A stretch of DNA of 64,000 nucleotides from Clostridia bacterium. Lineage in GTDB: Bacteria; Bacillota; Clostridia; Christensenellales; CAG-138. A program made the translations under genes and the position numbers. Shown here piece by piece: positions 17,360 through 40,058 of the stretch (its first letter is position 1; each line of letters starts with the position of its first letter). The notes under the pieces were generated by a model. That model searched no databases. It was not told the origin of the DNA and was given only the letters and a program-made list of their open reading frames with translations. The stretch is from contig JAFZRT010000029.1 in NCBI GenBank assembly GCA_017619735.1, positions 14,087 to 78,086 on the forward strand, in the 5' to 3' direction.

Positions 17360-18763
17360 ATGTGTCAGTATGATTACGATATAGCGGTGCTGGGCGGCGG
17401 TCCCGGCGGTTACGTCGCGGCGATAAGGGCTGCGCAGTACGGAAAAAAGGTCGCTCTCGTAGAGGCGAGGGAGCTTGGCGGCACCTGCCTCAACCGCGGC
17501 TGCATCCCCACAAAGGCGCTCCTGCACTGCGCCGAGGTATATGAGCAGTCGGCCGGCGCATCGGCATTCGGCGTGAACAGCGGCGAGGTCGGGTTCGATT
17601 TCGGCAGGATGGCGGAGTTCAAGCAGTCCACCGTCGACAAGCTCGTTTCCGGCATAGGCAGCCTCGAAAAGGCGCACGGCGTAAAGGTCATAAAGGGCTT
17701 CGGCCGATTGACCGACAGCCATACCCTCGACGTCGTACAGCCGACCGACGAGCATTTGACCGTCACGTTCGACAAGCTCATACTCGCTACCGGCTCTTCG
17801 CCCGCGCGTCCTCCCATAGAGGGCATTGACGGGCAGAACGTCGTTACCTCCGACGATATCCTTTCCATGACCGAGCTTCCCGAAAGCTTCGTCATAATCG
17901 GCGGCGGCGTTATAGGCATAGAGTTCGCAACGCTTTTTGCGACCCTCGGCAAGCCCGTCACCGTGATAGAGATGATGCCCTCCATACTGCCCGGAGCCGA
18001 CGCGGACGTTGTCAGGACCTGCCTGAGGGTGCTGAAGAAGAAAAAGGTACAGATCGTCAACAACGCCAAGGTCACGAAGATCGAAGACGGCGAGACCGTT
18101 ACCGTCAGCTATGAGCTCAACGGCGCCGTAAAGACAGCCGAGGGCGCCTGCTGCGTGGTAAGCGTCGGACGAAAGGCGGAGACCCGCGGTATCGGACTTG
18201 AGGAGATCGGCGTCGAGTTCAACAGGAACTTCGTCGTGATTGACGACCGCTGCAGGACAAATATCGAAAACATCTACGCAATAGGCGACATCACCGGCAA
18301 GATACAGCTCGCGCACGTTGCCTCCGCACAGGGCCTCATTGCCGCCGCAAACGCCGCAGGACACGACGAGGTGATGGACTACTCTGTAGTGCCCTCCTGC
18401 ATCTACACCAGCCCCGAGATCGCTTTTGTGGGCCTCTCGGAGGACAAAGCGAAGGCAATGGGCATCGAGTACAAGCTCGGTACTTTCAACGTCGCCGGCA
18501 ACGGCAGGGCGATGGTGATGGGGGAGAACCTCGGCATAGCCAAGCTCATATCCGATATGGACGGAAAGCTGATCGGCGCGCAGCTCATGTGCCCGAGGGC
18601 TACCGACATGATCGCGGAGCTCGCCGCCGTCATGAAGCTCGGCGGATCAGTAAAGGACGTTGCCGATACGATCCATCCTCATCCCACGGTCAGCGAGGTC
18701 GTCATGGAAGCCGCCCACGATTGGAAAGGCCTCTGCTGCCACGCTATGCCGAAACGGAAATAA
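17360..18763 (+). CDS. lpdA: Dihydrolipoyl dehydrogenase (E3-type pyridine nucleotide-disulfide oxidoreductase)
   Basis: ATG 17360 behind AAGGGAGGA. GGGPGGY FAD motif, redox disulfide GGTCLNRGCIPTK, and C-terminal HPHPTVSE dimerisation motif. No E1/E2 genes are adjacent. Confidence 0.85.
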   Translation: MCQYDYDIAVLGGGPGGYVAAIRAAQYGKKVALVEARELGGTCLNRGCIPTKALLHCAEVYEQSAGASAFGVNSGEVGFDFGRMAEFKQSTVDKLVSGIGSLEKAHGVKVIKGFGRLTDSHTLDVVQPTDEHLTVTFDKLILATGSSPARPPIEGIDGQNVVTSDDILSMTELPESFVIIGGGVIGIEFATLFATLGKPVTVIEMMPSILPGADADVVRTCLRVLKKKKVQIVNNAKVTKIEDGETVTVSYELNGAVKTAEGACCVVSVGRKAETRGIGLEEIGVEFNRNFVVIDDRCRTNIENIYAIGDITGKIQLAHVASAQGLIAAANAAGHDEVMDYSVVPSCIYTSPEIAFVGLSEDKAKAMGIEYKLGTFNVAGNGRAMVMGENLGIAKLISDMDGKLIGAQLMCPRATDMIAELAAVMKLGGSVKDVADTIHPHPTVSEVVMEAAHDWKGLCCHAMPKRK

Positions 18764-18777
18764 CAGAAATGAAAAGA

Positions 18778-18804
18778 GACCCGCGGGCTTCCGCGGGTCT
18801 TTTG
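18778..18804. terminator. Bidirectional terminator at the convergent lpdA / udg junction
   Basis: GACCCGCGG-GCTT-CCGCGGGTC followed by TTTTG; A-rich on the other side. Confidence 0.7.
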
Positions 18805-18812
18805 CTTTACTC

Positions 18813-19400
18813 TTACAACACTATCTCCTCGCCGGAGCGGATCCTGTCGACGAGCTTCTTCGCAGTGCACAGATCGTAAACGAAATCGTTCGTGAACTCC
18901 TGCCTGCGCAGAAGCGCCGCCGGATGATAGGTCGGGATAACGTAGAATATCCCGGCTTTTTTAATCTGCCCGCGCTGACGGGATATCTGGATATCCCTGT
19001 CGTAAACGTATCTCGCCGCGATCCTGCCGAGGCAGACAATGACCTTGGGCCTGACGAGAGCTATCTGCGCACGCAGATAGGGGAGACAAGCCTCCGCCTC
19101 GTCGGGGAAGGGATCGCGGTTCTGCGGAGGACGGCACTTCACTATGTTGCAGATATAGATGCTCTTTCGCTCGAGCCCAACTTCCTCCAGAAGATAGTTG
19201 AACAGCAGCCCCGCCGCCCCTACGAAAGGAACGCCCTGCTCGTCCTCCTCGCGGCCGGGACCCTCGCCGATGAACATTATCTCGGCATGGGGATCCCCGT
19301 CCGCAACGACTATATTGGTGCGCTTTTCGCAAAGCCTGCACTTCGTACAGTCCCGGAGCTCGTTATAAAGGGTGTCCCAATCGAATCTCAGAGTTGCCAT
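18813..19400 (-). CDS. Uracil-DNA glycosylase, family 4 (Fe-S type)
   Basis: 195-aa ORF with CTKCRLC, GEGPGREED, and the VPFVGAAG motif. Confidence 0.85.
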   Translation of the reverse strand: MATLRFDWDTLYNELRDCTKCRLCEKRTNIVVADGDPHAEIMFIGEGPGREEDEQGVPFVGAAGLLFNYLLEEVGLERKSIYICNIVKCRPPQNRDPFPDEAEACLPYLRAQIALVRPKVIVCLGRIAARYVYDRDIQISRQRGQIKKAGIFYVIPTYHPAALLRRQEFTNDFVYDLCTAKKLVDRIRSGEEIVL

Positions 19401-20566: not shown

Positions 20567-20579
20567 TTTTCTGCCTTTC

Positions 20580-21653: not shown

Positions 21654-21669
21654 TTCTTCCGCCTTTCGT

Positions 21670-23034: not shown

Positions 23035-23107
23035 AAGGTTATCCCACAAACGGGAACCGCCGTTTTCACAGCGGCTCCCGCGTTTCGTTCATTGATGGGG
23101 GAGAGGG

Positions 23108-25333
23108 TCACATCTTGCCCTCTTTTTCCATCTCCCATCTCTTCTTGATAAGGAACGTGGCGTTGTGCACGCCGTGGCTGCCGCGGCCGAAGCCCTCGTC
23201 CGCGCCGGCTTTCCTGGCGAGCTCGGGCGTGACCTGCGTGCCGCCCGCGATGAATATGATCTTATCGCGGATACCCATTTCGCGGCAGATCTGATCGATC
23301 TTGGCGATGTTCTTGTAATGGATATCGTCGTGGCTGATTATGGTCGAAGCCATTATCGCGTCGGCGTGGGTCTCGATAGCCGCGTTGACGAGCTTCTCGG
23401 GCGGGCAGGAGGTGCCGAGGTATACGACCTCCATGCCGTATTTCTCGATGCCGCCGTGCTTGATGTCGATGATCTCGCGGAGGCCGACGGAATGCTCGTC
23501 TTCGCCGACTGTCGCGGCGACGATCTTCATGGGCCTGCGCTCGATATCCTTGCGGATCTCATCGTCGGAGAGCACGTCCGGCTCCTTGGGAATCACGAGC
23601 GAATCCACGTCGATATCGAAGGGCACCTTGCCCTTGACCTCGATGCGCGTGCCGTCCTGCGGATGCATTATCTCGCGGGAGATGACCTCGCACTCGACAA
23701 GGTTCATGCGCTTCGCACATTCCAGAGCCGCGGCTTCGGCGATGGCCTTGGGAGCGGGGAAGAACATGGTGAGCATCACGGTACCGTCAGCGAGCCATTC
23801 CATTTCGGGACGGATCTTCTTGCCGCCGGGGGTGAACTCCTTGGAATCGGCCATACGGACGTTGACGTTGTCGTTCTCGTCCAGCTCGTCGATGTAGATG
23901 ATCTTATCGGGATCCTCTAGCGTGCAGCCGCCTATGAGAGCGGCGGGATCGGCGGGATCTCCGCCGTACTGCTCGACGTTGTTGTACCCGTAATGCGCGG
24001 TAACGGGAGCCATGTACTGCTTGTCGCGCTTGACTATCGTGCCGGCGCCTATGCCGCCGTTGATCTTCCTTGCGATACCGTCGCCGTTGCGCTCGGGATA
24101 GATGCCGGAATCGACGAAGAAGCCCTCTTCCACGGCCGCGAAGTAGCCGCCCAGTTCAAGCATCTCCTCCATGAAGAGGATCGCCCTTTCCTTCAGCTCG
24201 CGGGCCTTCTCACGCAGATAGCCGTCCTTCTTCAGCTCGACCATGTCCATAAGACCGTCCATACCGATCAGCGCCTGCTTCGCGGTGTCGCACGCCTCGA
24301 TATTGTAGATGTGCCAGGGCACGTTTCGGCCTTCGTCCGGGGTGATGGTGGACTGGATGTCGGCGCTCGTGAGCTTCGATATGACCATGTTGAGAACATG
24401 GGTGACCGTCGCCTCACGGGTGGAGGACTCGATGTACTTGGTGTTCATCTGCGCCCTCATGCGGTACTCGTGGAAGAGATCGCGCAGCGCCACGGCGTAA
24501 GGCAGATCCATGTGGATACAGGGCGCCGGAGTCGCGGTCGGGGGAACGGTGGAGAGGCAGATGTTCTTTTTGGGAACGCCGACCCTCGCGGAGAATATTG
24601 CGTTGATTCCGTGCTGCACCATGAGCTCGGGCATGACCTTCCACGCCTCTCTTGCGGTGGCGTTGGCGTTGTGCGCGCCGTCGATCTGCGCCATGCCGGC
24701 CCAGGCGATGAGCTTCTTCGATTCGCAGGCGTCTACGAAGGAGCGCATCATGTTGATATTGCGGTAGATGACGTTGTACTGCGGATCCTGATGGACGCCG
24801 TTGACGCCCTCCTCGGCGAACATTACGGCGATATCAGGTCCTGCGACGCCGGAAACGTAGCTGTGATAGTTGATGGGCCTTCCGACCTCATCCTCGATCA
24901 TGTCGAGCGCCTTGCGCTGTGCCCTGACCTGCTTTCTCGTGATGGGGACGCCGCCCATGCCCTGGGGAGTGCCCTCTATGAGGCCGTCAAAGTGGCTCTG
25001 ACCGGCGGTGCGGATGACCATGATATGATCCGCGCCGTGATGAGCGGCCATGCGCATGCGGCGGATATCGTCCTCGAAACGGCCGGAGGCGATCTCCGTC
25101 GTGATGACGGGCGCGGGCTGAGGATCGATGTCGCCGAAGTAGTGAGCGGGGGGAAGGGGAACGGAGCTCTTCAGCGGCTCGGTGGCTTCCAAATACTCGA
25201 ACGGTCCCATTTTGAGGCCGGGGACGGGCTTGCGCCAAGTCCAGCCCCTGCGGCGGGGACGGTACTTGTCAAGATCCTTCAGGATCTCCGCTACGTTGAT
25301 GGGTGCATCGGGAGAAAGTTTGTAATCGCTCAT
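23108..25333 (-). CDS. oraE: D-ornithine 4,5-aminomutase, large (beta/E) subunit, B12- and PLP-dependent
   Basis: 741 aa, the expected size. C-terminal Rossmann B12 domain with the DxHxxG motif (GEDEHSVG). Directly preceded by the 121-aa small subunit. Confidence 0.85.
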   Translation of the reverse strand: MSDYKLSPDAPINVAEILKDLDKYRPRRRGWTWRKPVPGLKMGPFEYLEATEPLKSSVPLPPAHYFGDIDPQPAPVITTEIASGRFEDDIRRMRMAAHHGADHIMVIRTAGQSHFDGLIEGTPQGMGGVPITRKQVRAQRKALDMIEDEVGRPINYHSYVSGVAGPDIAVMFAEEGVNGVHQDPQYNVIYRNINMMRSFVDACESKKLIAWAGMAQIDGAHNANATAREAWKVMPELMVQHGINAIFSARVGVPKKNICLSTVPPTATPAPCIHMDLPYAVALRDLFHEYRMRAQMNTKYIESSTREATVTHVLNMVISKLTSADIQSTITPDEGRNVPWHIYNIEACDTAKQALIGMDGLMDMVELKKDGYLREKARELKERAILFMEEMLELGGYFAAVEEGFFVDSGIYPERNGDGIARKINGGIGAGTIVKRDKQYMAPVTAHYGYNNVEQYGGDPADPAALIGGCTLEDPDKIIYIDELDENDNVNVRMADSKEFTPGGKKIRPEMEWLADGTVMLTMFFPAPKAIAEAAALECAKRMNLVECEVISREIMHPQDGTRIEVKGKVPFDIDVDSLVIPKEPDVLSDDEIRKDIERRPMKIVAATVGEDEHSVGLREIIDIKHGGIEKYGMEVVYLGTSCPPEKLVNAAIETHADAIMASTIISHDDIHYKNIAKIDQICREMGIRDKIIFIAGGTQVTPELARKAGADEGFGRGSHGVHNATFLIKKRWEMEKEGKM

Positions 25334-25698
25334 TATTCGTTACCTCCCTTGAAGAGATCGGCCGCATCGTCCCAGAGACGGCCGTTCACGAGCTCGAGGC
25401 CGGCGGGCCTTATGTCCATGCCCTTGGCCTTGGCAAGACGGTAGACCACGTTGCCCGCGCCGTAGCACATGAGCGAACGCTCGACGCATCCCTCGACAAT
25501 GGCTTTCGCCTCTATGGAGGAGAAGCCCATGCGGAGCAATACGGAACGCTCGATGGCGGGGGAGGTGTACTCCTTGCCCATCTGGAGAAGAGGATCCACG
25601 AGCTTGTTCGCAAGCTCCCAGAAGCGCTGCTCGATCTGCTCGTCGGTGAGATCCTTCAGGTGCTCATGGCGATTTTTGAAATCGTCGTCACGTTTCAT
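25333..25698 (-). CDS. oraS: D-ornithine 4,5-aminomutase, small (alpha/S) subunit
   Basis: 121-aa ORF with a 1-nt overlap to oraE. Size and position match OraS. Confidence 0.8.
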   Translation of the reverse strand: MKRDDDFKNRHEHLKDLTDEQIEQRFWELANKLVDPLLQMGKEYTSPAIERSVLLRMGFSSIEAKAIVEGCVERSLMCYGAGNVVYRLAKAKGMDIRPAGLELVNGRLWDDAADLFKGGNE

Positions 25699-25722
25699 AA
25701 CTGTTGTCCTCCGTGTTGGTTT

Positions 25723-27117
25723 TCAAAGTGAAGCGACAGCGTCGCGGACGAACTGCTCGTTCGTGTTGGTCTCCTCAACGAGGAACCTGATATCCTCATC
25801 CGTGAGCTCGTCCTTGCGGGAGCCGACGGCTCTCTTGATCCTGGATCTGCGCATATGGTCGAGATCGAGGTCGGTCACGCGGATGAGCGAGGGGTGAGCG
25901 GGCAGTATGATGTTCTTGCCGGGTATCTCATCCTTAGGATCGCCGAAATGGATGTCGATGCCGTTCTGACGGGCGAAGGAGAGCTGGGGATTGAGGTGCT
26001 TGCCCGCGCCGGTGTATTCGGTCTCCTGAACGACAATGCACTGATCGCGGTCCATGTCCTGAGCGAGGCAGAAAGCCGCGGCGAGGGAAGTGTTTCCCGC
26101 CGGACCCTTCTCAAGGCCTTCGAGCGAGGCGAGGCATTCGGTGATGTAGAACACGCTGCCCTGTGTGACGGTCACGTACCTGTCCATGTAGCGGAGAGGC
26201 CTTGCGGCGCTCCTCGGCACGTCGGAATGGTCGGGATTAACGGTATAGGGAACGCCGAAGCCGGTGTGGCCGGTGGTGAAGCTCTTCTTGTTGAACTGGC
26301 TGTCGCTCGCCATGTGCAGACCGGAGAGGTTGACGGAAGCCGCAACGACCTTTGCGCTGCAGCCGGCCTTCCTGAGGCCCCTTGCAGTGCCGGTGAGGTT
26401 GCCGCCGCCCGCGTTCGTGCAGACGACCACGTCCGGATCCCTGCCTATCTTGGCACGGAACTGCTCCGCTATCTCATAGCCGAGCGTTTCGACGCCGGCG
26501 ATTCCGAACGGGGTGTAGAGGGAAGCGTTGAAATAACCGGTCTCCTCGAGGAGCTGGAGCACCGTGGAGAAGAGCTCGGGACCGACTGTGAGCTGGACGA
26601 CCTCGGCGCCAAGCGCTTCGCACTTGCGGGCCTTCTCGATTATCTCGGGCTGACCCACGCCCTTCGAGTCGTAGCATTCCTGAACGACGATGCACTTGAG
26701 CCCCGCCATTGCCGCGCAGCACGCGACGGCAGCGCCGTAGTTGCCGCTCGTCGCGGTGACGACGCCCTTATAGCCGAGCTTCTTCGCCTGATAGACGCTC
26801 GTGCAGGCACGGCGCGCCTTGAACGAGCCGGAGGGGTTGGACGCCTCGTCCTTGATGAATATGCGCGCGCCCTTACCCTCGGGAGCGCACTTGCGCGCGA
26901 GCTCGGTGAGGTTCTTGAGCTCGATCAGCGGGGTGTTGCCGATCGAGAACATGGACTGTACGCGCCTGATCTCTTCGATGGTGTAACCGGTGGCTTCCAT
27001 CATGGCCTCGTAATCGAAGCCGATGCCGGGCTTCTCGAACTTTTCGAAGTCCATGCCGACCGCGTTCTTTATGATCTCGTTCTTGCGGGCCATTATCGCG
27101 TCATAGCTGTTATCCAT
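25723..27117 (-). CDS. ortB: 2-amino-4-oxopentanoate thiolase, beta subunit (PLP, Trp-synthase-beta fold)
   Basis: 464-aa ORF with NPSGSFKAR (PLP-Lys), TATSGNYG, and a Gly-rich loop NAGGGNLTG. Overlaps ortA by 1 nt. Confidence 0.8.
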   Translation of the reverse strand: MDNSYDAIMARKNEIIKNAVGMDFEKFEKPGIGFDYEAMMEATGYTIEEIRRVQSMFSIGNTPLIELKNLTELARKCAPEGKGARIFIKDEASNPSGSFKARRACTSVYQAKKLGYKGVVTATSGNYGAAVACCAAMAGLKCIVVQECYDSKGVGQPEIIEKARKCEALGAEVVQLTVGPELFSTVLQLLEETGYFNASLYTPFGIAGVETLGYEIAEQFRAKIGRDPDVVVCTNAGGGNLTGTARGLRKAGCSAKVVAASVNLSGLHMASDSQFNKKSFTTGHTGFGVPYTVNPDHSDVPRSAARPLRYMDRYVTVTQGSVFYITECLASLEGLEKGPAGNTSLAAAFCLAQDMDRDQCIVVQETEYTGAGKHLNPQLSFARQNGIDIHFGDPKDEIPGKNIILPAHPSLIRVTDLDLDHMRRSRIKRAVGSRKDELTDEDIRFLVEETNTNEQFVRDAVASL

Positions 27118-27416
27118 CAGTCTTCACCTCCGAACGTGATCCTGCGTACCTGGTCGCCGATCTCCAGCACCTCGGGTACGAAGAATCCGAAATTATGCTC
27201 GAAATAGGGGTTGACCTTAACGACGGTGCCCTTCGCGTGACGGCCGGTGCGGGTGACGACCTCCGCGACTTCGCCTATTTCGGCGTCCTCGGTGAGGTGG
27301 CCCTTTACCCACATCTCAAGAGGATTGACTTTCGTATCCTCGGGAAGAGCGGAAGAGCGCTCCTCGGGCGGCAGAACGATGTTGTGTATCTGCACCCAAT
27401 CGCCTTTCTTTGCCAT
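27117..27416 (-). CDS. ortA: 2-amino-4-oxopentanoate thiolase, alpha subunit
   Basis: 99-aa ORF immediately upstream of and overlapping ortB. Size and position match OrtA. Confidence 0.75.
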   Translation of the reverse strand: MAKKGDWVQIHNIVLPPEERSSALPEDTKVNPLEMWVKGHLTEDAEIGEVAEVVTRTGRHAKGTVVKVNPYFEHNFGFFVPEVLEIGDQVRRITFGGED

Positions 27417-27477
27417 AATTACCTCCAGTATGATAAAGCTTGGGAAGTCGGCTTAAGCGCCGGCTTCCCGTCATCTA

Positions 27478-28524
27478 TTATTTCTCTATATAGTCGCGGA
27501 AGTCGCCCATGATGGCATGGGGAACGGGCAGATCGATCATGGTCTTCAGGCCGGGTTTGGCGTTGATGACGTGGGGGATCATGTTGACGCACATCGCGAT
27601 CGTGCCGAGGCCGCCCTCGACTTCGGGGGTGTTGGCAACGTGGATTGCGGGAGTGCCCTCGATAACGACGTAATCGCCGGTATGGGTGCCCTCCATCTCG
27701 GGCTCGATCTGCTGGGGATGGATGAGGTCGATCTTCATCTTGCCGTCGACGTAGGCCTGCGCGGTCATATTGACGCCCGCGACGTTGCCCGCGGCAGCGA
27801 AGCCGTAGGGAGCCTGACGGTCGACCTTGGTGACGATGGGCGCCATCTGCTTCTCGAACTTGTCGATCTTCCAGCCGAGAGCTTCGGCGATCATGCCGGC
27901 GGACTCTTCAAAACCGACGTGACCGGCGAGGGTGCCGTCCTCAACGCCCTTGTTGAACTCGTCGACGGTGATGCCGATGCCCTGCTCCTTCATAACGGCG
28001 GGGCCGAAGGGGGAGAGGGAGTTGACACGCTTGCACATAACGGATTCGACGTCGATCATGCAGCCGGAAAGGCAGATGGCGAGAAGGTCCATCATGAGGC
28101 CCGGGTTGATGCCGGTGCCGAGCACGGATACGCCGTTCTCCTTCGCGATGCGGTCGAGTTCCGCAGCGAGCTCGGGATGCTGCGCCTTGGGATAGCTCAT
28201 CTCCTCGGCGGTGGTGACGACGTTGATGCCGTTTTCGAGAACGAACTTGATCTTCGGGAACACGGCGGGTACGAAGGAATCGGTCGCGACGATGGCTACG
28301 TCCGCGGCGCCCTTGTAGATGACGGTGTTGATATCGTTGGAGATGAGGACGTCCTTCCTTTCGCCCCTCTCGATGCCGAGACGGTCGAAAATGCTCATTC
28401 CGTTGAGCTTATCCCACATGTCGCAAACGCCGGTGATCTCCACGCCCTTTTTGCCGAGGAGCATCTTTGCGATACCGGAACCCATCGCGCCGAAACCCCA
28501 GATAGCAACTCTAACATTTTCCAT
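27478..28524 (-). CDS. ord: 2,4-diaminopentanoate dehydrogenase
   Basis: Start moved to ATG 28524 (GGAGG RBS at 28531..28535). MENVRVAIWGFGAMGSG is a Rossmann N-terminus of the DapB-like family. First gene of the cluster. The track's extra 47 N-terminal codons run through the AT-rich promoter region. Confidence 0.8.
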   Translation of the reverse strand: MENVRVAIWGFGAMGSGIAKMLLGKKGVEITGVCDMWDKLNGMSIFDRLGIERGERKDVLISNDINTVIYKGAADVAIVATDSFVPAVFPKIKFVLENGINVVTTAEEMSYPKAQHPELAAELDRIAKENGVSVLGTGINPGLMMDLLAICLSGCMIDVESVMCKRVNSLSPFGPAVMKEQGIGITVDEFNKGVEDGTLAGHVGFEESAGMIAEALGWKIDKFEKQMAPIVTKVDRQAPYGFAAAGNVAGVNMTAQAYVDGKMKIDLIHPQQIEPEMEGTHTGDYVVIEGTPAIHVANTPEVEGGLGTIAMCVNMIPHVINAKPGLKTMIDLPVPHAIMGDFRDYIEK

Positions 28525-28582
28525 AATTGACCTCCGTGAAATTGATTCAGTACAGTATTTTTCAAAATACTCCCAAATACAA

Positions 28583-28611
28583 ATTATATCATATGCATTA
28601 TGCATCTGCAA
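28583..28611 (-). promoter_or_regulatory. Putative sigma-A promoter of the ord operon, with a quasi-palindrome in the spacer
   Basis: Minus strand reads TTGCAG-17 nt-TATAAT. The spacer contains ATGCATAATGCAT (28593..28605). Confidence 0.45.
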
Positions 28612-28659
28612 ACCCAAAAGGGAACGGAAAAAGATTATATTTTCAATCAAAACGAGCTG

Positions 28660-28688
28660 TTGCAAAAGGCAGAAATGATCTGTATAAT
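28660..28688 (+). promoter_or_regulatory. Putative sigma-A promoter of the dockerin-protein gene
   Basis: TTGCAA-17 nt-TATAAT with an extended -10 TG (TGTATAAT). RBS AGGAGG sits before ATG 28736. Confidence 0.55.
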
Positions 28689-28735: not shown

Positions 28736-31129
28736 ATGACCAAAAAGCTGATCGCGATACTTGCGGTGCTTGCGATGACTTTCTCGCTCGTTCCCGCTTT
28801 CCCGGCTTCCGCTGAGCCCGAAGCCGATGTCACCGGCTCCGGCGATATCATATTCGATACCGACCCCGCCGGCGGCTACGAGGGCGATTACGTCGTCATC
28901 TACAACCCCGCGACTTCCGCTTATACGAGCTATTCGACGGGGACCATGACCGGCCTTATCGAGACCGAGGTCGATCCATATGCCAAATCCGCCGGCGTTC
29001 CCGTATCCGACGAACCCGTCAGGATCGACGTTGACGGCCTAATCGCAGAGATTGACGCTCAGAGGCCGAAGACCGAGCCCCCCCTGGCGGAGAGGACATC
29101 CTATAACGTGGGCGACGTGCGCACCTTCACCATCAGCAACTACAGCCCGGGTTCCTCCAATCTGAGCTTCAAATGCCTCGCCAAGGGCGATCACTGCTAC
29201 GTCTGGACCCCTTCCCAGAACGTGCAGAATTACTATCCCCTCGACGTGATAGATCCGAGCTACGCACAGCTCGTCTGCAACGAATTCGAGAGGAACTACG
29301 CCCTCATGAACGTCTCGTTCGGCAACCACTCCAACGGTTCCAACGGCGACGGCAGGGTACACCTCATGTACTACAATATCGACGACGGATTCCAGCCCGG
29401 CGTCAGCAACAGCTATGTCGCGGGTTATTTCTCCTCGTACGATTTCTCCACGAACGGCCTTCCGATGATCCACGTGGACACGTACCCCTGCGTCTACTAC
29501 GTCAACACCTCCGGTCAGGAGATCTATCAGCTCGAAAACTCCTACAGCGTATTCTGCCATGAGTATCAGCACCTGATCAATTATTCCCAGACCGGCGGCA
29601 TGGACACCTGGCTCAATGAGTGCATGAGCGCCGCCGCGGAGGAGATCTGCTATCCCGGCTCCAGCGTTATCCCCAGGATACAGAGCTGGGAGAATTATTA
29701 CTATTCCACCAACGGCGACTGGCTCAATCCTCCTCACGAATTCGCTTACAACCCCAATTACGAGCTCCATAACGGTTACTCCATGTACGACTGGAGCAAC
29801 TACATTAACTACGTTCTTCCGCTCTATGCGCAGGTCTCGCTGTTTGCACAGTACCTGTTCACGCACTACGGGAACCCCATATTCAGGAGCATAACGCAGG
29901 CCTATAACTCCTCCGGCAGCACGGTAACCGCCATTGCGAACGCCACAGGCGGCAATACGGCCGAGATAGTCAAGAACTTCCGCATTGCGCTCGTAGCCAA
30001 CGATTATGCGGCTTATGACGGCGAGTACGGCTTCATCCCGCAGGAGGGCTACGATCCCGAGGAATATCACAACGTACAGAATCCCTACGATCTGCTGGCG
30101 CCCGTCATATTCACCGGTACGAGCTGCTCGATTTCCGGCGGCGGCGCGATCACCGTCAAGCCCGTTGGCGGCGTTTACAATCCGCCCTCCGGCGCGGCTT
30201 CCGGCCTCGTCTACATCGGCATCACGAGGGTCACGAACACCGAGCCCGTCGCCCTTGAGGGCATCGAGCTTTCACAGTCCCAGGCGACGACGTACGTCGG
30301 CAATACGATATCGCTCTCCGTCGTGCGCACCCCCTATAACGCCAACAGCTTCTCGACGACTTGGACCAGCACCAATCCCTCCGTCGCCACCGTCGCCGGC
30401 GGGGCGAGGTCTGCGACCGTTACCGGCGTTTCAGTCGGCAGGACGACCATCATTTGCCGCGCGACCGACGATATAACCGGCAACACCTATACCGCAACGG
30501 CCATAGTCGACGTAAGGAACTTCCCGACGCTCAACGAGGCGCTCAACGTTTCCGGCGGCACGCTCAACTTCACCACGGCGGGCTCTTATCCCTGGGTCGT
30601 CAATCTCGACGGCGAGAGGGCTTACGCCAATTCCGGCAACGCAGGCGTCAACGATTCGAGCTCCGACGTTTCTACCACCGTCCACATGCAGGCGGGGGAG
30701 ACGCTCTCCTTCGAATGGGCCGTCAGCAGCGAATCCAGTTATGATAAGCTCAAGTTCTACGTAAACGGTGCGGAGACCGCCTCCATTGACGGCTCGGTGA
30801 ACTTCTACACCTACACCTACACAGCCGCGTCCACAGGCAATTACACCTTCAAATGGTCTTACGTCAAGGACTATTCCGTGAACAGCGGCTCAGATATGGG
30901 CTATCTCGACAACGTCGCTTACAGCGGCGATTCGCTCTCGGTGCTGCTCGGCGACGTCGATCTTGACGGCGACGTCGACACCGCGGACGCACTGCTGATA
31001 CTCCGCTACGCGATGAATCTGACGACGTTCACCGACGAGCAGCTCGCGAGGGCCGACGTCGATCAGAACGGCAGCGTCGACACAGCGGACGCGCTGCTCG
31101 TACTCAGGCAGACGATGCAGCTGAACTGA
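28736..31129 (+). CDS. Secreted putative zinc metallopeptidase (HExxH) with Big_2 Ig-like module and C-terminal type-I dockerin
   Basis: Signal peptide MTKKLIAILAVLAMTFSLVPAFPASA. HEYQH at 29558..29572 with downstream NECMSAAAEE. Big_2-like VTGVSVGRTTIICRATDD. The C-terminal duplicated Ca-binding repeats DVDLDGDVDTADALLILR / DVDQNGSVDTADALLVLR form a dockerin. Confidence 0.7.
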   Translation: MTKKLIAILAVLAMTFSLVPAFPASAEPEADVTGSGDIIFDTDPAGGYEGDYVVIYNPATSAYTSYSTGTMTGLIETEVDPYAKSAGVPVSDEPVRIDVDGLIAEIDAQRPKTEPPLAERTSYNVGDVRTFTISNYSPGSSNLSFKCLAKGDHCYVWTPSQNVQNYYPLDVIDPSYAQLVCNEFERNYALMNVSFGNHSNGSNGDGRVHLMYYNIDDGFQPGVSNSYVAGYFSSYDFSTNGLPMIHVDTYPCVYYVNTSGQEIYQLENSYSVFCHEYQHLINYSQTGGMDTWLNECMSAAAEEICYPGSSVIPRIQSWENYYYSTNGDWLNPPHEFAYNPNYELHNGYSMYDWSNYINYVLPLYAQVSLFAQYLFTHYGNPIFRSITQAYNSSGSTVTAIANATGGNTAEIVKNFRIALVANDYAAYDGEYGFIPQEGYDPEEYHNVQNPYDLLAPVIFTGTSCSISGGGAITVKPVGGVYNPPSGAASGLVYIGITRVTNTEPVALEGIELSQSQATTYVGNTISLSVVRTPYNANSFSTTWTSTNPSVATVAGGARSATVTGVSVGRTTIICRATDDITGNTYTATAIVDVRNFPTLNEALNVSGGTLNFTTAGSYPWVVNLDGERAYANSGNAGVNDSSSDVSTTVHMQAGETLSFEWAVSSESSYDKLKFYVNGAETASIDGSVNFYTYTYTAASTGNYTFKWSYVKDYSVNSGSDMGYLDNVAYSGDSLSVLLGDVDLDGDVDTADALLILRYAMNLTTFTDEQLARADVDQNGSVDTADALLVLRQTMQLN

Positions 31130-31826: not shown

Positions 31827-32732
31827 TCATATCCCGAAGGATAATGCAAGACGGAACCAAAGCGGAGGCGGGGTCTGCGTAATCGATAATTCGTAAAGCT
31901 TCCGCAGCCATTCCTGCTCGAAATCCGTTTTTGCCGTGTTATCCGCGGGGAGCAGCCCTATCGCCGATAGCGTGCTCTGCGCTTTTATCGACAGAGCGTA
32001 TTCGATGAAGCCCGCGGCGTAGGGGAGCTTCTTTTCGTCGATCCCGACGAAAAGAGCGAGATACTGGTATTTCAATGTGCCCTCGATCGGTTCGGCCTCA
32101 AAATACGGACATTTTCCCATTAGCTCCGCACGGTAAAGATCACCCGTTCCGCGGATATCGCATATGCAGGAGGCCGTCTTTCCCCGTCGGAACTCATCGG
32201 GCGTTCCGGCGGACTCGGCAAGCGATGATAATTCAGCGTTCAGCGCGGCTGTTGGATCGTACACGAGAAAGCTGCCCGAGGCGCAATAGGGGAGAGCATA
32301 CGTTTTTTCGATCTCTCGGACGAACGTCCGAAAGGCCTTGCCTGCAAATGTGTCCCCGGAAATGCTTATGACGTCCGGCCTTGATCCGCGCGAAAGCTGC
32401 TCCAGCGCGTCCTCCGGGGAATAGGAGCTGACGTTGAAGTAAACGCCCGCGTAGCCCTTTGAATATCGCTCGGCGCGCTGCTTCAGCCAGTTTCCCAAGC
32501 TGCCGACATAGGGCCTGAAATCCGCGATATGCCATACGTCGATGATCACCGCGGCGCGTCCTGCGTCTCGCTGCAGCCATTGACGGTACCTGTCCTCGTG
32601 CAGTCCGTCCGAGAACCATTTCGGCGAAACGCAGACATAAATAGCCGCTCCGATAAGCGCGATCAGCCCGATCAGACGCTTTACAAAGCGGTTTTTCCCT
32701 TTGATTTTATTATTTTTTTCCGTATCTTCCAT
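31827..32732 (-). CDS. Hypothetical membrane-anchored protein (301 aa), possibly solute-binding-protein-like ectodomain
   Basis: N-terminal basic stretch plus TM (LIGLIALIGAAIYVCV). No catalytic motif recognised. It starts 28 nt downstream of the recombinase stop. Confidence 0.5.
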   Translation of the reverse strand: MEDTEKNNKIKGKNRFVKRLIGLIALIGAAIYVCVSPKWFSDGLHEDRYRQWLQRDAGRAAVIIDVWHIADFRPYVGSLGNWLKQRAERYSKGYAGVYFNVSSYSPEDALEQLSRGSRPDVISISGDTFAGKAFRTFVREIEKTYALPYCASGSFLVYDPTAALNAELSSLAESAGTPDEFRRGKTASCICDIRGTGDLYRAELMGKCPYFEAEPIEGTLKYQYLALFVGIDEKKLPYAAGFIEYALSIKAQSTLSAIGLLPADNTAKTDFEQEWLRKLYELSITQTPPPLWFRLALSFGI

Positions 32733-32760
32733 ACGGAAAACTATGCGGAAGGCGACCGGA

Positions 32761-33864
32761 TTATTCCTCCGTATTGTCGGGGAGGCGGGGGAGAAGCTCG
32801 TCTTCTTCGGCGCTTTCCCCGCGCAGCTTCACGATCTCCGCCGCCATGCGCCGTCTGTCCTCGCTCATTGCCGCGTAATGCTTCCTCGTGGTGTTGACGT
32901 CCTTATGTCCAAGCACGTCCGCGACCAGATATATGTCGCCGGTCTCGCGGTAGAGCATCGTTCCGTATGTCGATCTGAGCTTGTGCGGGGAGATCTTTTT
33001 GAGCGGCGCGGCTATCTGCGAGTATTTTTTGACGAGCATCTCGACGGAACGGACGCTCATGCGCTTTTTCTGCATGGAGAGGAAAAGCGCCTTTTCGTGG
33101 CCCTCGGCAGGGATGATGCTATCGCGGTAGATCATGTACCTGAGCAGCGCCTGTCTCACCTCGGAGCCGAATACTATCTGCTCCTCGTTGCCGCCCTTTC
33201 GTGTGATCCTGACCTCGTTGGACATGAAATTGAGGTCGTCGATATCGATGCCCACGAGCTCGCTGATACGCATGCCTGTTCCCAGAAACAATGTAATAAT
33301 TGCCGTATCACGCACTGCGTTCATCTGATGATATATTTTTTGCTTCTTCGTCAGTCCGTCGCCGCTTTCGACCGTTTCGAGGAGTTTTTCCATCTCGTCC
33401 GGCTCAAGCCGGATTATCGGCTTTTCGTGAAGTTTCGGAGTGTCGACGAGGGCGGGGGCGTTGTTCTTTATGCGCTCCTTTTTGTAAAGGTATTTGAACA
33501 GCGCGCGTATCGCCGAGAGCTTGCGCGCTTTGGCTCGTTCGCCGTTTATCACGAGCTCGTCCTTGTCGTCGTCCGGCTGATACAGGGATACGTATTCGAG
33601 ATAACACTCGATGCAGACCGAATCCACGCGTTCCAGCACCGAATAATCGATCTGCCGCATGGTTTCGAGTCCATGACAGATATCCGTACCGAGCAGATAC
33701 GTGAAAAACGTCTTGAGATCGACCGCGTATCCGTAGCGCGTCATGATGCCGGTGGTCAGTTCGATCCCGCGGAAAAACTCCGTGCAGCAAGGCGGAAGCG
33801 ACGAAACGAGCTCGCGCAGCTTCAAAGTGTATTTCTTGGTTTTCTCGATAGAGTATTCGCTCAT
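32761..33864 (-). CDS. Tyrosine site-specific recombinase, long XerS/XerH-like form
   Basis: ATG 33864 behind AAAGGAGG (the track TTG/ATG at 33906 lies in the promoter). 367 aa. The catalytic set is visible: GTGMRISE (Arg), HKLRSTYG (HxxR), LGHKDVNTTRKHY (His...Tyr). N-terminal SAM-like core-binding domain. Confidence 0.85.
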   Translation of the reverse strand: MSEYSIEKTKKYTLKLRELVSSLPPCCTEFFRGIELTTGIMTRYGYAVDLKTFFTYLLGTDICHGLETMRQIDYSVLERVDSVCIECYLEYVSLYQPDDDKDELVINGERAKARKLSAIRALFKYLYKKERIKNNAPALVDTPKLHEKPIIRLEPDEMEKLLETVESGDGLTKKQKIYHQMNAVRDTAIITLFLGTGMRISELVGIDIDDLNFMSNEVRITRKGGNEEQIVFGSEVRQALLRYMIYRDSIIPAEGHEKALFLSMQKKRMSVRSVEMLVKKYSQIAAPLKKISPHKLRSTYGTMLYRETGDIYLVADVLGHKDVNTTRKHYAAMSEDRRRMAAEIVKLRGESAEEDELLPRLPDNTEE

Positions 33865-33900
33865 GGGGAAGCCTCCTTTGGTGCCTGCCTCATTATAACA

Positions 33901-33936
33901 CAACATTGCGTTAAAGACAAGTTTAACGCAATGTTG
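33901..33936. other. Perfect 15-6-15 inverted repeat: candidate recombinase core site (dif-like) or operator
   Basis: CAACATTGCGTTAAA-GACAAG-TTTAACGCAATGTTG; all 15 arm pairs checked base by base. It lies 36 bp upstream of the recombinase ATG and overlaps its putative promoter (TTGTCT-17-TATAAT, with TGT extended -10 at 33892..33900). Confidence 0.5.
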
Positions 33937-33964
33937 AATCGAGAAATATGCAAAATATATTATT

Positions 33965-34447
33965 TTAGTCCTCCGGAGAGGGCTCGGGCGTTTTTTCCGG
34001 CTCCATGGCCGCTTTGAGCTTTTTTATCTCTCCGCGTGCAAGTTCGTCGCAGCGGTTGTTGAACTCGTTGTCCGAATGGCCCTTGACCTTATGCCACGTG
34101 ACCTTGTGCGTCCGCGTGAGCTCGATCATTTTTTCCCAGAGGTCCTTGTTTTCGACCGGCTGCTTGTTTGATTTCTTCCAGCCGTTTTTCATCCAGTTGT
34201 ACAGCCATCCCTGATTGAACGTATCGCTCAGATAAGCGCTGTCCGTGTATATGTCGACTTCGCAGCTTTGCTTCAGCGCGCTTAAGGCCATCATAGCTGC
34301 GGTTATCTCCATGCGGTTGTTTGTTGTTTCAATCTCGCCGCCGGAAATCTCCTTGCGCGTGGTCTTATACATCAGTATTGCGGCCCATCCGCCCACGCCG
34401 GGATTTACCGAGCAGGCGCCGTCCGTGTAGATCGTGACCTTTTTCAT
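33965..34447 (-). CDS. rnhA: Ribonuclease HI
   Basis: 160-aa ORF. MKKVTIYTDGACSVNPGVGGWAAIL...TNNRMEITA...YTDSAYL...HKVKGHSDNEFNNRCDELA shows the full DEDD set. Confidence 0.9.
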   Translation of the reverse strand: MKKVTIYTDGACSVNPGVGGWAAILMYKTTRKEISGGEIETTNNRMEITAAMMALSALKQSCEVDIYTDSAYLSDTFNQGWLYNWMKNGWKKSNKQPVENKDLWEKMIELTRTHKVTWHKVKGHSDNEFNNRCDELARGEIKKLKAAMEPEKTPEPSPED

Positions 34448-35187
34448 GCTTCGAGATTATAATCCACGGTGAACAGCGGCAGTCTGTCTTCGACCTGCCA
34501 ATCGCCGTATACGCCGCAGTGAGCCGCACCGATCTCGATATGCAGCATGGCTATTCCGCAGTCGATCCCGCCGTAGCCGAAGTTCTTGGAAACGCAGGCG
34601 ATCTGCATGGAATCGGTCATAACGTCGAACTCCCAGGGCTGGGCGTTCCTCGCCGAAGGCGCAAGCCTGCCGCACTCGATCGCGCATTTCTGCCAGTCGG
34701 GCAGCTTTTTGAACGCCTCGTCGTCGAGGCCCGTAAGATTATATATTGTTTTGCGCGTCCTCTTGTGGGAGGGCTGCATCTCATAACGGCCGATGGAGAT
34801 CATGCAGCGGAGCTTTTCGCCCTCGTTCAGACGAATGAACGATTTTGCGAGCGCCTTGTTGTACGAAAGGCCGAGCCAGCAGGTGCCGTAGCCCATGGCG
34901 GTACACTCCAAAACAAAGGCCTCTCCGACGGATCCGACCATGTAATCGCTTTCGTTCCCGCGGGAGATTATGGCCGCAAAAGTATCGGTGCCGCTTATGG
35001 TTTTGCCGATTATCGCGTCGAAAATGCCGTCCTTTTTGCCAACGACGATCCTAACGTCGTCAGTGCTCAGATACTGCGCGGCCTCCTTGAGATCAAGGAG
35101 CTCGTCGCGGGTGACGCTGTCGGAATATTTGCGGACCGAGACCCTTTTCCTTATCGCCTCGTACCATTTTTCCATTGAAAGTTCCAC
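34444..35187 (-). CDS. Nitroreductase-family protein
   Basis: 247-aa ORF with RVSVRKYSD and SARNAQPWEF, typical nitroreductase-fold motifs. 4-nt overlap with rnhA. Confidence 0.7.
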   Translation of the reverse strand: MELSMEKWYEAIRKRVSVRKYSDSVTRDELLDLKEAAQYLSTDDVRIVVGKKDGIFDAIIGKTISGTDTFAAIISRGNESDYMVGSVGEAFVLECTAMGYGTCWLGLSYNKALAKSFIRLNEGEKLRCMISIGRYEMQPSHKRTRKTIYNLTGLDDEAFKKLPDWQKCAIECGRLAPSARNAQPWEFDVMTDSMQIACVSKNFGYGGIDCGIAMLHIEIGAAHCGVYGDWQVEDRLPLFTVDYNLEA

Positions 35188-35211
35188 TGCTGCCTCTCCC
35201 CCGTCCTTTTG

Positions 35212-38033
<2,822 letters not shown>

Positions 38034-38037
<4 letters not shown>

Positions 38038-40058
38038 TTTCTGGTCCTCTGCCTTGCTCTCTTTTTGCTGCCGACAGTGCCCGGCGCGGCGCGCCTTGCT
38101 CCGTCGGGTTCTCTGCCCTGGAGACGGAACAGTTCGTCGCGCAGTTTTGCGGCTTCCTCGAACTCGAGCTCCATAGCCGCCTGACGCATCTGTTCGGATA
38201 TGAGACGGATGCGCTCGGCGCGCTCCTCCTCCGTCATCCCGTCCTTCGACGGCTTTGCCTTGGAGCTGATCTCTATTACGTCGTGCACCGCCTTTTTGAT
38301 GCTCTGCGGGGTGACGCCGTGTTCAAGGTTGTACCGCATCTGCTTTTCACGGCGGCGGTTGGTCTCGTCTATCGCCCTCTGCATGGAGTCGGTGACGGTG
38401 TCGGCGTACATTATAACGCGTCCCTCCACGTTCCTTGCGGCTCGGCCGATCGTCTGAACGAGCGAGGTGGTCGAGCGCAGGAAGCCCTCCTTGTCTGCGT
38501 CGAGTATTGCCACGAGGCCGACCTCGGGAAGGTCGAGCCCCTCCCTTAACAGGTTGATGCCAACGAGCGCGTCGAATTCGCCCAGACGCAGATCCCTTAT
38601 TATCTCCATCCTCTCGATGGTCTCGATATCCGAATGCATGTATCTCACGCGGACGCCCATACCGTCGAGATATTCCGTCAGCATTTCCGCCATTCGCTTC
38701 GTAAGGGTCGTTACGAGCGTCCTGAAGCCCTTTTGAGCGGTTTTGCGTATCTCCCCGAGAAGATCGTCGACCTGGCCCGAAACCGGCCGTATGACGATCT
38801 CGGGGTCCACAAGGCCGGTCGGCCTTATTATCTGCTCCGCGATCTGCGACGCATGCGAAAGCTCGTATTCCGCCGGAGTTGCGCTTACGCAGATGAGCTG
38901 CGACACCCTCTGCTCGAATTCGTCGAAAGTCAGCGGGCGGTTATCGTACGCGCTGGGTATGCGGAAGCCGTATTCGACGAGCTCCGTCTTCCTCGACAGG
39001 TCGCCGCGGTACATGGCCCTGAGCTGTGGCAGAGTGACGTGGGACTCGTCGATGATCGTGAGGAATCCCTTCGGGAAATAGTCCATGAGCGTGAACGGGG
39101 GCTCCCCCGGCTTCCTGCCGTCGAAGTATCTCGAATAATTCTCTATGCCCTGACAGTAGCCTATCTCGCGGATCATCTCCATATCGTACGTCGTGCGCTG
39201 CTCAATGCGTTGCGCTTCGAGCAGCTTGTTCTGCGCCTTGAACTCCTCTGCGCGCGCCATCATGTCGCGCTTGATCTCGCTCAGCGCGTCCTCGAGCTTT
39301 TCCTTGTCGGTAGCGTAATGCGTCGCGGGGAATATCACGACGTGGGCGAGCGTCCGCAGCGGCACGCCCGTCAGAACGGAGATCTCGGAGATGTTCTCTA
39401 TCTCGTCGCCGAAGAGCTCTATCCTTATGGCCTTCTCGTATTCGCTCATGGGGAATATCTCGATGACGTCGCCCTTGACGCGGAATGTGCCTCGGGAGAA
39501 ATCCAGCTCGTTGCGCTGATACTGCATGTCCACGAGCTTGCGCAGTATCGCGTCGCGCTCCGCCTGCATGCCTATACGCAGAGACATGCTCATCCGCATG
39601 TATTCCTCGGGGCTTCCGATAGCGTAGATGCAGGAGACCGAAGCAACGATTATGACGTCCTTCCGCTCCTTCAGCGCACAGGTCGCGCTGTGACGCAGAC
39701 GGTCGATCTCCTCGTTTACGGACGACTCCTTTTCGATGTATGTATCAGACGAGGCGATATAGGCCTCGGGCTGATAGTAATCGTAATAGCTGACGAAGTA
39801 CTCGACGGCGGAATCGGGAAAGAACTCGCGAAGCTCCGAGCAAAGCTGCGCGGCGAGGGTCTTGTTGTGCGCTATGACGAGGGTGGGCATCTGCACCTTT
39901 TCTATGACCTTTGCCATGGTGAAGGTCTTGCCGGAGCCCGTCACGCCGAGCAGCACCTGCAGCCTGTCCCCGCGCTTTACTCCCTCCGCAAGCTTTTCGA
40001 TCGCCTGCGGTTGATCGCCCATCGGTTCAAAGGGCGATACGGCCTTGAATACGTCCAT
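38034..40058 (-). CDS. uvrB: Excinuclease ABC subunit B
   Basis: 674 aa with [14 protein letters not shown] helicase motifs, and the C-terminal UVR domain ([12 protein letters not shown]). Confidence 0.97.

Follow-up and report, generated by a model that had tools for sequence, protein, structure and literature searches.

The closest described counterparts of the locus analyzed here are Xer systems that rely on a single tyrosine recombinase, above all XerS/difSL of streptococci and lactococci (Le Bourgeois 2007, PMC1914069; Nolivos 2010, PMC2965235). The difSL site is located about 50 bp upstream of xerS, and autoregulation was proposed by its discoverers (PMC1914069); similarly, difH adjoins xerH (PMC2731167, PMC5357621). 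Our subject is a 36-bp inverted repeat and the adjacent gene for a 367-amino-acid (aa) XerS-like tyrosine recombinase in a 64,000-nucleotide stretch of a Clostridia bacterium genome (contig JAFZRT010000029.1, positions 14,087 to 78,086; hereafter, the window). We found no description of a single-recombinase Xer module in Clostridia in the literature. An earlier reading of this DNA from its letters (the original prediction) took the repeat for a dif-like site, and all of its points that we were able to check are borne out. Judging from the conservation of the two elements in relatives, the repeat is very probably the cognate site of the adjacent recombinase. With less assurance, we favor the full reading, under which the two form an autoregulated, dif-like module of the XerS/XerH style that resolves chromosome dimers and is conserved across the class Clostridia. 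The elements of the module are the following.

33901..33936 (no strand): core site, two 15-bp inverted arms and an asymmetric 6-bp spacer (repeat finder; conservation in relatives)
33901..33915 (no strand): arm on the side away from rnhA, proposed binding site of one recombinase monomer (arm conserved across Clostridia families and phages, spacer variable)
33916..33921 (minus strand): 6-bp spacer, CTTGTC in the direction of the gene, proposed crossover region that contains most of the -35 hexamer
33922..33936 (no strand): rnhA-side arm, proposed binding site of the second monomer (repeat finder)
32761..33864 (minus strand): Xer-subgroup XerS-like tyrosine recombinase, 367 aa (Pfam, NCBIfam and PDB matches; homologues)
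33872..33879 (minus strand): ribosome-binding site AAAGGAGG, 7 nt ahead of the ATG (read from the sequence)

On the plus strand, the site reads CAACATTGCGTTAAA (33901-33915), GACAAG (33916-33921) and TTTAACGCAATGTTG (33922-33936), letter for letter the perfect 15-6-15 inverted repeat of the original prediction, and the repeat finder agrees, with the two 15-nt arms 100% complementary and 6 nt between them. The gap of 36 bp to the start of the recombinase gene, whose ATG occupies 33864-33862, is likewise as claimed, and 28 bp separate the site from the stop codon of rnhA. The chance expectation for a perfect 15-nt arm pair at a fixed spacing is about 6e-5 per 64 kb by our own arithmetic. The window contains no further copies of the arm at up to 2 mismatches and one copy at 3 mismatches, which is within chance. 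Chance or artefact as the origin of the repeat is excluded by the perfect arms, the uniqueness in the window and the conservation in relatives. Three other 12-6-12 repeats in the window, with at least 11 of the 12 arm positions paired, look, from their letters, like G+C-rich hairpins with terminal T runs. To our knowledge, the site has no convincing match to LexA, Spo0A, CcpA, Rex, parS and other boxes, and no GAAC-N4-GTTC or LexA-box-like sequence is visible at the recombinase promoter of the window.

The recombinase yields a Pfam Phage_integrase match in the catalytic domain (E = 5e-33), and the Pfam scan detects no domains other than the core-binding and catalytic ones. Among the curated NCBIfam models, XerS (NF003462) ranks best for the window protein, at 192.9 bits, and is again the top model for six homologues from other Clostridia families (182-204 bits), which bears out the claimed membership in an Xer-type family. 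The window protein is not a classical XerC or XerD, with 153 and 147 bits, respectively, against cut-offs of 335 (TIGR02224) and 330 (TIGR02225), and across the recombinase and its homologues these two models score 145-181 bits. In two homologues, a single alignment spans nearly the whole XerS model of 360 positions (residues 11-343 to model positions 4-356 in the homologue of locus L031, and 11-345 to 4-350 in P0087), and the size and extended N-terminal domain of the protein fit the XerS type, for which about 356-360 aa are expected. The best PDB match is XerD (1a0p, E = 2e-22), with XerH a distant one (5jjv, E = 6e-9). The predicted R...HxxR...H...Y set is intact: R199, K223, H294-x-x-R297 and Y330 are invariant in 17 homologues, and H320 is replaced by Q in two of these. 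The listed homologues derive from metagenome-assembled genomes of Clostridia, with lengths of 350-400 aa and identities of 60-89%; where a source names them, it uses only the generic 'tyrosine-type recombinase/integrase'. One recombinase open reading frame (ORF) was noticed among the partly scanned ORFs of the window. Because XerS is the best model but falls below its cut-off, XerC and XerD score lower still, and the homologues are conserved, the recombinase is, by these measures, a distinct clade of the Xer subgroup, nearest to XerS and yet no XerS equivalog.

Evidence that the site belongs to this enzyme comes from its linkage to the recombinase gene in 80 loci that contain relatives of the recombinase, taken from species-representative genomes. 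When the DNA upstream of each gene is searched for inverted repeats in an unbiased way, one architecture recurs, AACTATTCGTTAAA-CTTGTC-TTTAACGAATAGTT, and the Clostridia-wide consensus site is CAACTATTCGNNAAA-N6-TTTNNCGAATAGTTG, of which the site in the window is a lineage variant, with arms CAAC-ATTGCG-TTAAA versus CAAC-TATTCG-NNAAA in the consensus. A relaxed pattern scan finds a single site in each of 52 loci and, with the addition of L001 and L002, which have window-type arms, 54 of the 80; copy counts cover the 64-kb window and the 9-kb loci, with one site each. All 54 sites lie on the upstream side of the recombinase gene, at distances of 48 to 3735 bp, and the only downstream matches are at 4 mismatches, the level at which most matches arise in shuffled sequence. 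The linkage is thus of the kind predicted from XerS and XerH, the order rnhA-site-recombinase recurs among relatives, and the only gene consistently linked to the site is that of the recombinase, with no regulator gene among its constant neighbors.

The same association is found in metagenomes, where 54 contigs contain window-type arms (pattern CATTGCG..AAA-N6-TTT..CGCAATG). In all 7 contigs of the window lineage (GC content 0.50-0.54), the site is located 36-68 bp upstream of the recombinase and occurs nowhere else on the contig; rnhA lies across the site from the recombinase in 6 of the 7, and the recombinase is 81-86% identical where the gene is present. A clade of lower GC content, with recombinases 44-50% identical, has the same arrangement, and more distant recombinases (28-37% identical) are preceded by such a site at 0.4-1.3 kb.

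The arm sequence is conserved across families, and the spacer differs between lineages (CTTGTC, GTCTAG, TACAAG, GACAAC and others), so that the claimed core-site architecture of tyrosine recombinases, inverted arms around an asymmetric 6-bp spacer, is both present in the window and maintained in relatives. Furthermore, neither of the two NN positions can pair between the arms in 33 of the 56 distinct phage sites, and the same holds for 6 of 18 host sites. Conservation of the arms as sequence, combined with this mispairing and the variable spacer, indicates a likely protein-binding site instead of a selected hairpin.

In a subset of the loci, the site lies apart from the recombinase promoter. 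In L015, L028, L034, L048, L062 and L068, mostly Lachnospiraceae, it precedes a ttcA-like gene and the recombinase gene, which apparently constitute a two-gene operon; the intervening gene of L062 (3222-3947) encodes a TtcA-like PP-loop protein (NCBIfam TtcA, 197.8 bits, cut-off 272). In L033, L051 and L056, the site is flanked by the 3' ends of two genes that run toward each other, about 2.5 kb away from the recombinase, and in L038 it is at a similar distance of about 2.5 kb, between two minus-strand genes. Because the linkage persists where the site is outside the recombinase promoter, the site is not solely an operator.

The most unexpected part of the finding is that phages carry the same site. 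At least 120 IMG/VR contigs contain the consensus pattern, which specifies 20 bases, and the viral counts given here refer to the matches listed (L081-L200). These comprise 56 distinct site variants with free spacers, in the form CTATTCGNNAAA-N6-TTTNNCGAATAG (for example, L081 7530-7559). Of the 120, 119 lack a recombinase and one is a host locus; the viral copies are an apparent mimicry of the kind that mobile elements practice with dif. The viral site follows, at a distance of 10-320 bp, the 3' end of a gene whose product is about 190-250 aa long; in 56 loci, a terminase large subunit gene lies beyond it, starting 0.25-6.6 kb away and always reading away from the site. About half of the viral contigs listed belong to one family of roughly 55-60 kb, in which an additional half-site, AACTATTCGTGA (L081 7518-7530), abuts the full site and could be an accessory binding site.

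Window-type arms have a single match among viruses, AACATTGCGCGAAA-TAAGAT-TTTAGCGCAATGT in L203 (1222-1251; IMGVR_UViG_3300034683_000281), 10 bp past a gene that exceeds the Pfam Terminase_2 cut-off (62 bits) and matches the PHROG 'terminase small subunit' families. Because L203 carries the arm variant of the window lineage, phage copies appear to follow the arm specificity of the host lineage. The site neighbor is thus a confirmed terminase small subunit in L203, with a weak gp3-like match in L105. The corresponding gene of the large family encodes a protein of about 227 aa (L081 6774-7457, with relatives in 65-88 viral loci and the 3' end 76-320 bp from the site). Neither this protein nor nine of its relatives match Pfam or PHROGs, and it is a putative terminase small subunit by position only. 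A BLAST search with the phage locus against GenBank phages matched tRNA genes only.

Five of the 10 weak BLAST matches to the site among GenBank phages (E 0.4-5) are small single-stranded DNA (ssDNA) faecal phages, four Microviridae and one Inovirus, with the sites mostly in unannotated intergenic regions.

L204, 1402: site in Microviridae
L205, 2998: site in Microviridae
L261, 400: site in Microviridae
L262, 400: site in Microviridae
L260, 395: site in Inovirus (PQ006106.1)

In each of these, one arm is intact (11-13 of the 13 specified positions) and the other is degenerate (5-9 of 13). Such sites are similar to the dif mimics that Xer-dependent integrating elements carry, and they recall CTX-type filamentous phages. 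They also recall the gokushovirus prophages, which carry dif motifs (PMC7062461). By analogy, the phage copies suggest that mobile elements may treat the site as they treat dif. None of the host loci has phage genes beside the site, so that prophage integration at the host site is unsupported. Since the phages carry the arms without a recombinase and the recombinase is the only linked gene in hosts, the arms appear to be read by a host-supplied factor.

Under the full reading, each 15-bp arm would be bound by one recombinase monomer, and two occupied sites, one in each half of a chromosome dimer, would pair near the replication terminus. Strand cleavage and exchange by the tyrosine nucleophiles would follow at the two borders of the 6-bp spacer, so that the dimer is resolved into monomers. 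In the lineage of the window, the bound recombinase would also block RNA polymerase at the -35 element in the spacer, limiting its own synthesis, and the copies of the arms in phages of these hosts would presumably serve to recruit the host enzyme.

In comparison with XerS/difSL, both systems consist of one Xer recombinase, about 360 aa in length and extended at its N-terminal domain, and a site that lies tens of bp upstream of its gene, as a single genetic module in a terminus-like setting, and promoter overlap with autoregulation is proposed for both. In both, the spacer is bordered by A/T-rich arm sequence, and a TTC..G motif lies toward the outer part of the arm (TTCGYWAAA here versus TTTCCGAAAA in difSL). 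The differences are that the scores here, 182-204 bits, are under the cut-off of 267; that the hosts are Clostridia, not Streptococcaceae, for which loss of XerC/XerD has been shown; that the gap between site and gene reaches 3.7 kb in some lineages; and that the arms are 15 bp long and often perfect around a 6-bp spacer, whereas difSL has imperfect, unequal arms and an 11-bp central region (PMC5357621).

Other single-recombinase systems are more remote. XerH/difH of Helicobacter and Campylobacter (PMC2731167, PMC3325230; structures 5jjv, 5jk0) shares the single recombinase of about 360 aa, the near-palindromic site with a 6-bp spacer, usually beside the gene, and a similar arm pattern with AAAA next to the spacer, but the protein similarity is distant and the hosts belong to another phylum. 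XerL/dif of Legionellales (PMC9765430) also combines a single recombinase with dif arms that are long uninterrupted inverted repeats, and that dif was recognized through a mobile element carrying its copy; in Legionella, however, over 400 kb separate xerL from dif. XerC/XerD with the 28-bp dif (and the integrative mobile elements exploiting Xer, IMEX) represent the same recombinase subgroup with the same proposed role and with phage-borne copies, but involve two enzymes, two different arms and genes unlinked to dif, and their models score far below the cut-offs here. Cre/loxP of phage P1 has symmetric arms, an asymmetric spacer and a site by the recombinase gene, as here; Cre, however, is phage-encoded, whereas the phages discussed here carry the site only, and the enzyme would be that of the host. 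In P1, loxP is near pac, and the phage copies of the present site are likewise beside packaging genes.

Two features of the neighborhood bear on the terminus question.

33965..34447 (minus strand): rnhA (RNase HI), conserved upstream neighbor (NCBIfam RNase HI equivalog, 211.5 bits, cut-off 160)
18763..18813 (no strand): convergent gene-polarity switch, candidate replichore junction 15 kb from the site (plus-strand gene end at 18763, minus-strand end at 18813)

The original prediction placed the recombinase among core genes, rnhA and uvrAB. For rnhA, this is secured by the equivalog score; the uvrA- and uvrB-sized ORFs upstream of it, unscanned in the window, are named by synteny with L201 and L202, where the orthologues contain UvrA and UvrB domains. 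The order rnhA-site-recombinase is kept in L031, L201, L202 and the metagenome contigs. In L201, of the 'Clostridium sp. CAG:138' type, the series uvrB-uvrA-nitroreductase-rnhA-site-recombinase converges on a 139-aa gene, a Met_gamma_lyase-family gene, miaA, mutL, mutS and miaB, and the cumulative skew reaches its maximum at the 3' end of the recombinase gene. In L031, the order is valS, proC, rnhA, site, recombinase, a small gene, lexA, a Met_gamma_lyase-family gene, miaA and mutL. Generally, in related loci, the upstream genes are directed at the site and the downstream genes are opposed to it, and GC skew is positive to the left and negative to the right of the locus in 19 of the 23 loci with enough flank. 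This is the sign pattern of a terminus, and a terminus position of the locus is likely.

In the window itself, plus-strand genes predominate below 18.8 kb and minus-strand genes beyond it, so that the convergent polarity switch claimed about 15 kb from the site does exist; in relatives, the switch is at the site or within a few genes. Because the minority-strand genes have more negative GC skew at third codon positions (GC3 skew) on either side of the switch, the forks in the window seem to converge between 18.8 and about 31 kb. Locally, the cumulative GC skew of the window peaks near 9 kb and near 28 kb, and the plain GC skew is too noisy to be used alone.

Several observations weigh against the full reading. 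The XerS equivalog cut-off is missed by the window protein (192.9 versus 267 bits) and by all six scored homologues, and the difSL sequence and geometry (31 bp, arms TTTCCGAAAA and TTTTCTTGAAA) are not reproduced by the 15-6-15 site, with only the general TTC..G..AAA pattern in common. In 26 of the 80 loci, no site is found within the DNA examined. Regarding the terminus, codon usage dominates per-gene GC3 skew, in which the replication signal is weak; whole-sequence GC skew tracks gene orientation; and the downstream block (the small gene with a LysM-like motif, lexA, the Met_gamma_lyase-family gene, miaA and mutL) is conserved synteny that confounds the signal, so that the loci are not independent observations. 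The window as well as L001 and L002, its nearest relatives, show no switch within 4-5 kb of the site, the nearest being 6-15 kb off, and many Lachnospiraceae loci have none, several of them with negative skew on both flanks. The test of a dif-like terminus position comes down to the sign change in 19 of 23 loci, read on synteny-confounded local flanks, and to a switch 6-15 kb off in the window. In two complete chromosomes, the locus is at 38% and 13% of the record, figures that refer to the start of the record and not to oriC. Finally, we infer the binding of the recombinase, cleavage and dimer resolution at the site, as well as any FtsK/SpoIIIE dependence and the autoregulation. For XerC and XerD themselves, a wide distribution and an ancient origin in Firmicutes have been reported (PMC8136486), and a survey of 2011 predicted dif sites of the XerCD type for nearly all the Firmicutes it tested, including most of its Clostridia (PMC3025954).

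Coexistence with XerC/XerD is the main open rival, to which we assign a low but appreciable probability: the repeat would be a true recombination target that serves no dimer resolvase but functions, beside classical XerCD/dif, in decatenation, in DNA repair or the SOS response, or as a domesticated resolution module on which phages and plasmids depend. Apart from the two surveys just cited, Lactobacillus helveticus offers a precedent, having XerC, XerD and XerS together (PMC3025954), and the DNA-repair neighbors (uvrBA, rnhA, lexA, mutSL) and the lack of a skew switch in several Lachnospiraceae loci are compatible with such a second system. On the other hand, the context is convergent and skew-switching in most non-Lachnospiraceae lineages; in L033, L051 and L056, the site is exactly at a convergent 3'-3' junction, away from the gene; a scan with the Firmicutes and E. 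coli dif cores at up to 3 mismatches finds no classical dif in the terminus-like window; and protein identities of 60-89% fit a housekeeping role.

The operator question is tied to the promoter of the recombinase gene.

33892..33920 (minus strand): sigma-70-type promoter of the recombinase (promoter scan, 10/12 consensus matches plus TG)

The promoter consists of a -35 hexamer TTGTCT (33920-33915), a 17-nt spacer and a TG-extended -10 hexamer TATAAT (33897-33892), and the -35 hexamer sits in the spacer of the site, extending one base into the neighboring arm. The same geometry, with 4 to 6 of the 6 consensus positions matched in the -10, is present at 25 of the 51 sites with TTG in the spacer, which include the window, eight relatives that share its arms and have a CTTGTC or CTTGCC spacer, and Christensenella-type loci. 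Because the -35 hexamer lies within the spacer, autoregulation of the recombinase is plausible in the lineage of the window; the autoregulatory operator, considered initially as an alternative, is probably also true and no rival to a recombination site, and the layout makes the idea, first raised for difSL, directly testable. A different and improbable proposition is that the repeat is a transcriptional operator only, bound by the recombinase or another dimeric protein, with no recombination there. The position of the -35 element and the TG-extended -10 is in line with such an operator, the geometry is conserved in the lineage of the window and in Christensenellales-type loci, and a dimeric regulator also predicts conserved arms with a free spacer. 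Yet, the sites of L033, L051 and L056 are 2.5 kb off, between convergent 3' ends and with no promoter there, a position that fits a recombination site at a replichore junction and that a pure operator has no reason to occupy; the phage contigs hold the site after the gene in the position of the terminase small subunit gene (terS), with the recombinase gene absent; 15-6-15 with an asymmetric 6-bp spacer is the core-site geometry of tyrosine recombinases; and no regulator gene accompanies the site.

Still less probable, to the point of being a marginal option, is that the recombinase serves an integrated mobile element as its integrase, with the repeat as the att or end site. Recombinase-beside-site modules are indeed typical of integrons, phages and integrative and conjugative elements (discussed in PMC1914069), and similar sites accompany shorter tyrosine recombinases in apparently mobile contexts (L231). 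The locus, however, keeps the same housekeeping neighbors (rnhA, uvrBA, mutSL, lexA) across Clostridia orders, with identities that appear taxonomic; there is no second copy of the site and no mobile-element gene in the annotated part of the window; and the protein has only the core-binding and catalytic domains. That the repeat is an RNA hairpin terminating rnhA transcription, another alternative raised by the original prediction, is hardly credible and was rejected: despite its location 28 bp past the rnhA stop codon and a 15-bp stem with a minimum free energy of -25.4 kcal/mol (101-nt region; z = -3.2), no U tract follows either arm, the terminator scan makes no call, it is the arm sequence, beyond pairing, that is conserved across the class, with pairing broken at two positions in most variants, and the site is also met downstream of unrelated genes, upstream of ttcA-like genes and in phages.

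If the repeat and recombinase form a class-wide dimer resolution module, it fills a missing branch among the single-recombinase Xer systems, which in archaea are represented by XerA, and would be a candidate source lineage of the streptococcal XerS module, as well as a terminus marker for fragmentary gut genomes. A recombination system of one protein and 36 bp could also furnish genetic tools for anaerobes, and matching site arms could tie uncultured phages to Clostridia hosts. A broader conjecture, which we put forward tentatively and consider somewhat doubtful, is that Clostridia, among them the dominant gut families Lachnospiraceae, Oscillospiraceae and Christensenellaceae, resolve chromosome dimers via an undescribed XerS-like enzyme and a 15-6-15 site maintained beside its gene, and that a large and varied group of phages exploits this enzyme. 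Should this be the case, the site of tailed phages, which follows the gene in the terS position and precedes that of the terminase large subunit (terL), could let the host enzyme circularize incoming phage DNA or resolve multimers; the microviruses and the inovirus, with one intact and one degenerate arm, would resemble Xer-dependent integrating elements; and the arm variants of phages, such as the CATTGCG arms of L203, would track the arm specificity of the host lineage.

Several side observations concern the surroundings of the module and a related type of locus. In the window (31827-40058), L031 and L201, the module is found among DNA-repair genes (uvrB, uvrA and rnhA; in relatives, also lexA and mutS/mutL). 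A small gene separates the recombinase from lexA and is divergent from the latter; its counterpart in L020 has a LysM-like motif. In L231 (5745-6771), as well as in L233, L249, L253, L256 and L258, a 319-aa ORF is followed 38 bp on by CATTGCGGTAAA-ATAGTA-TTTACCGCAATG; from its N-terminal sequence, the ORF product looks like a shorter tyrosine recombinase. TnpB-like and primase-like genes, so judged from their letters, are close by in L231, and loci of this type may be a mobile module with the same class of site.

Precisely where the genes of the window converge, a G+C-rich 12-6-12 hairpin flanked by A and T runs (18774-18803) looks like a bidirectional terminator. Between this junction and the recombinase are an ornithine-fermentation operon (19403-28665; aminomutase subunits, 2,4-diaminopentanoate dehydrogenase, a pyridoxal phosphate (PLP) enzyme and racemases) and a gene for a dockerin/Big_2 protein (28736-31129). 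Both are absent from L201 and L202, with skew unlike that of their neighbors, and the 12-kb segment that separates the switch from the recombinase has the look of a terminus-proximal insertion.

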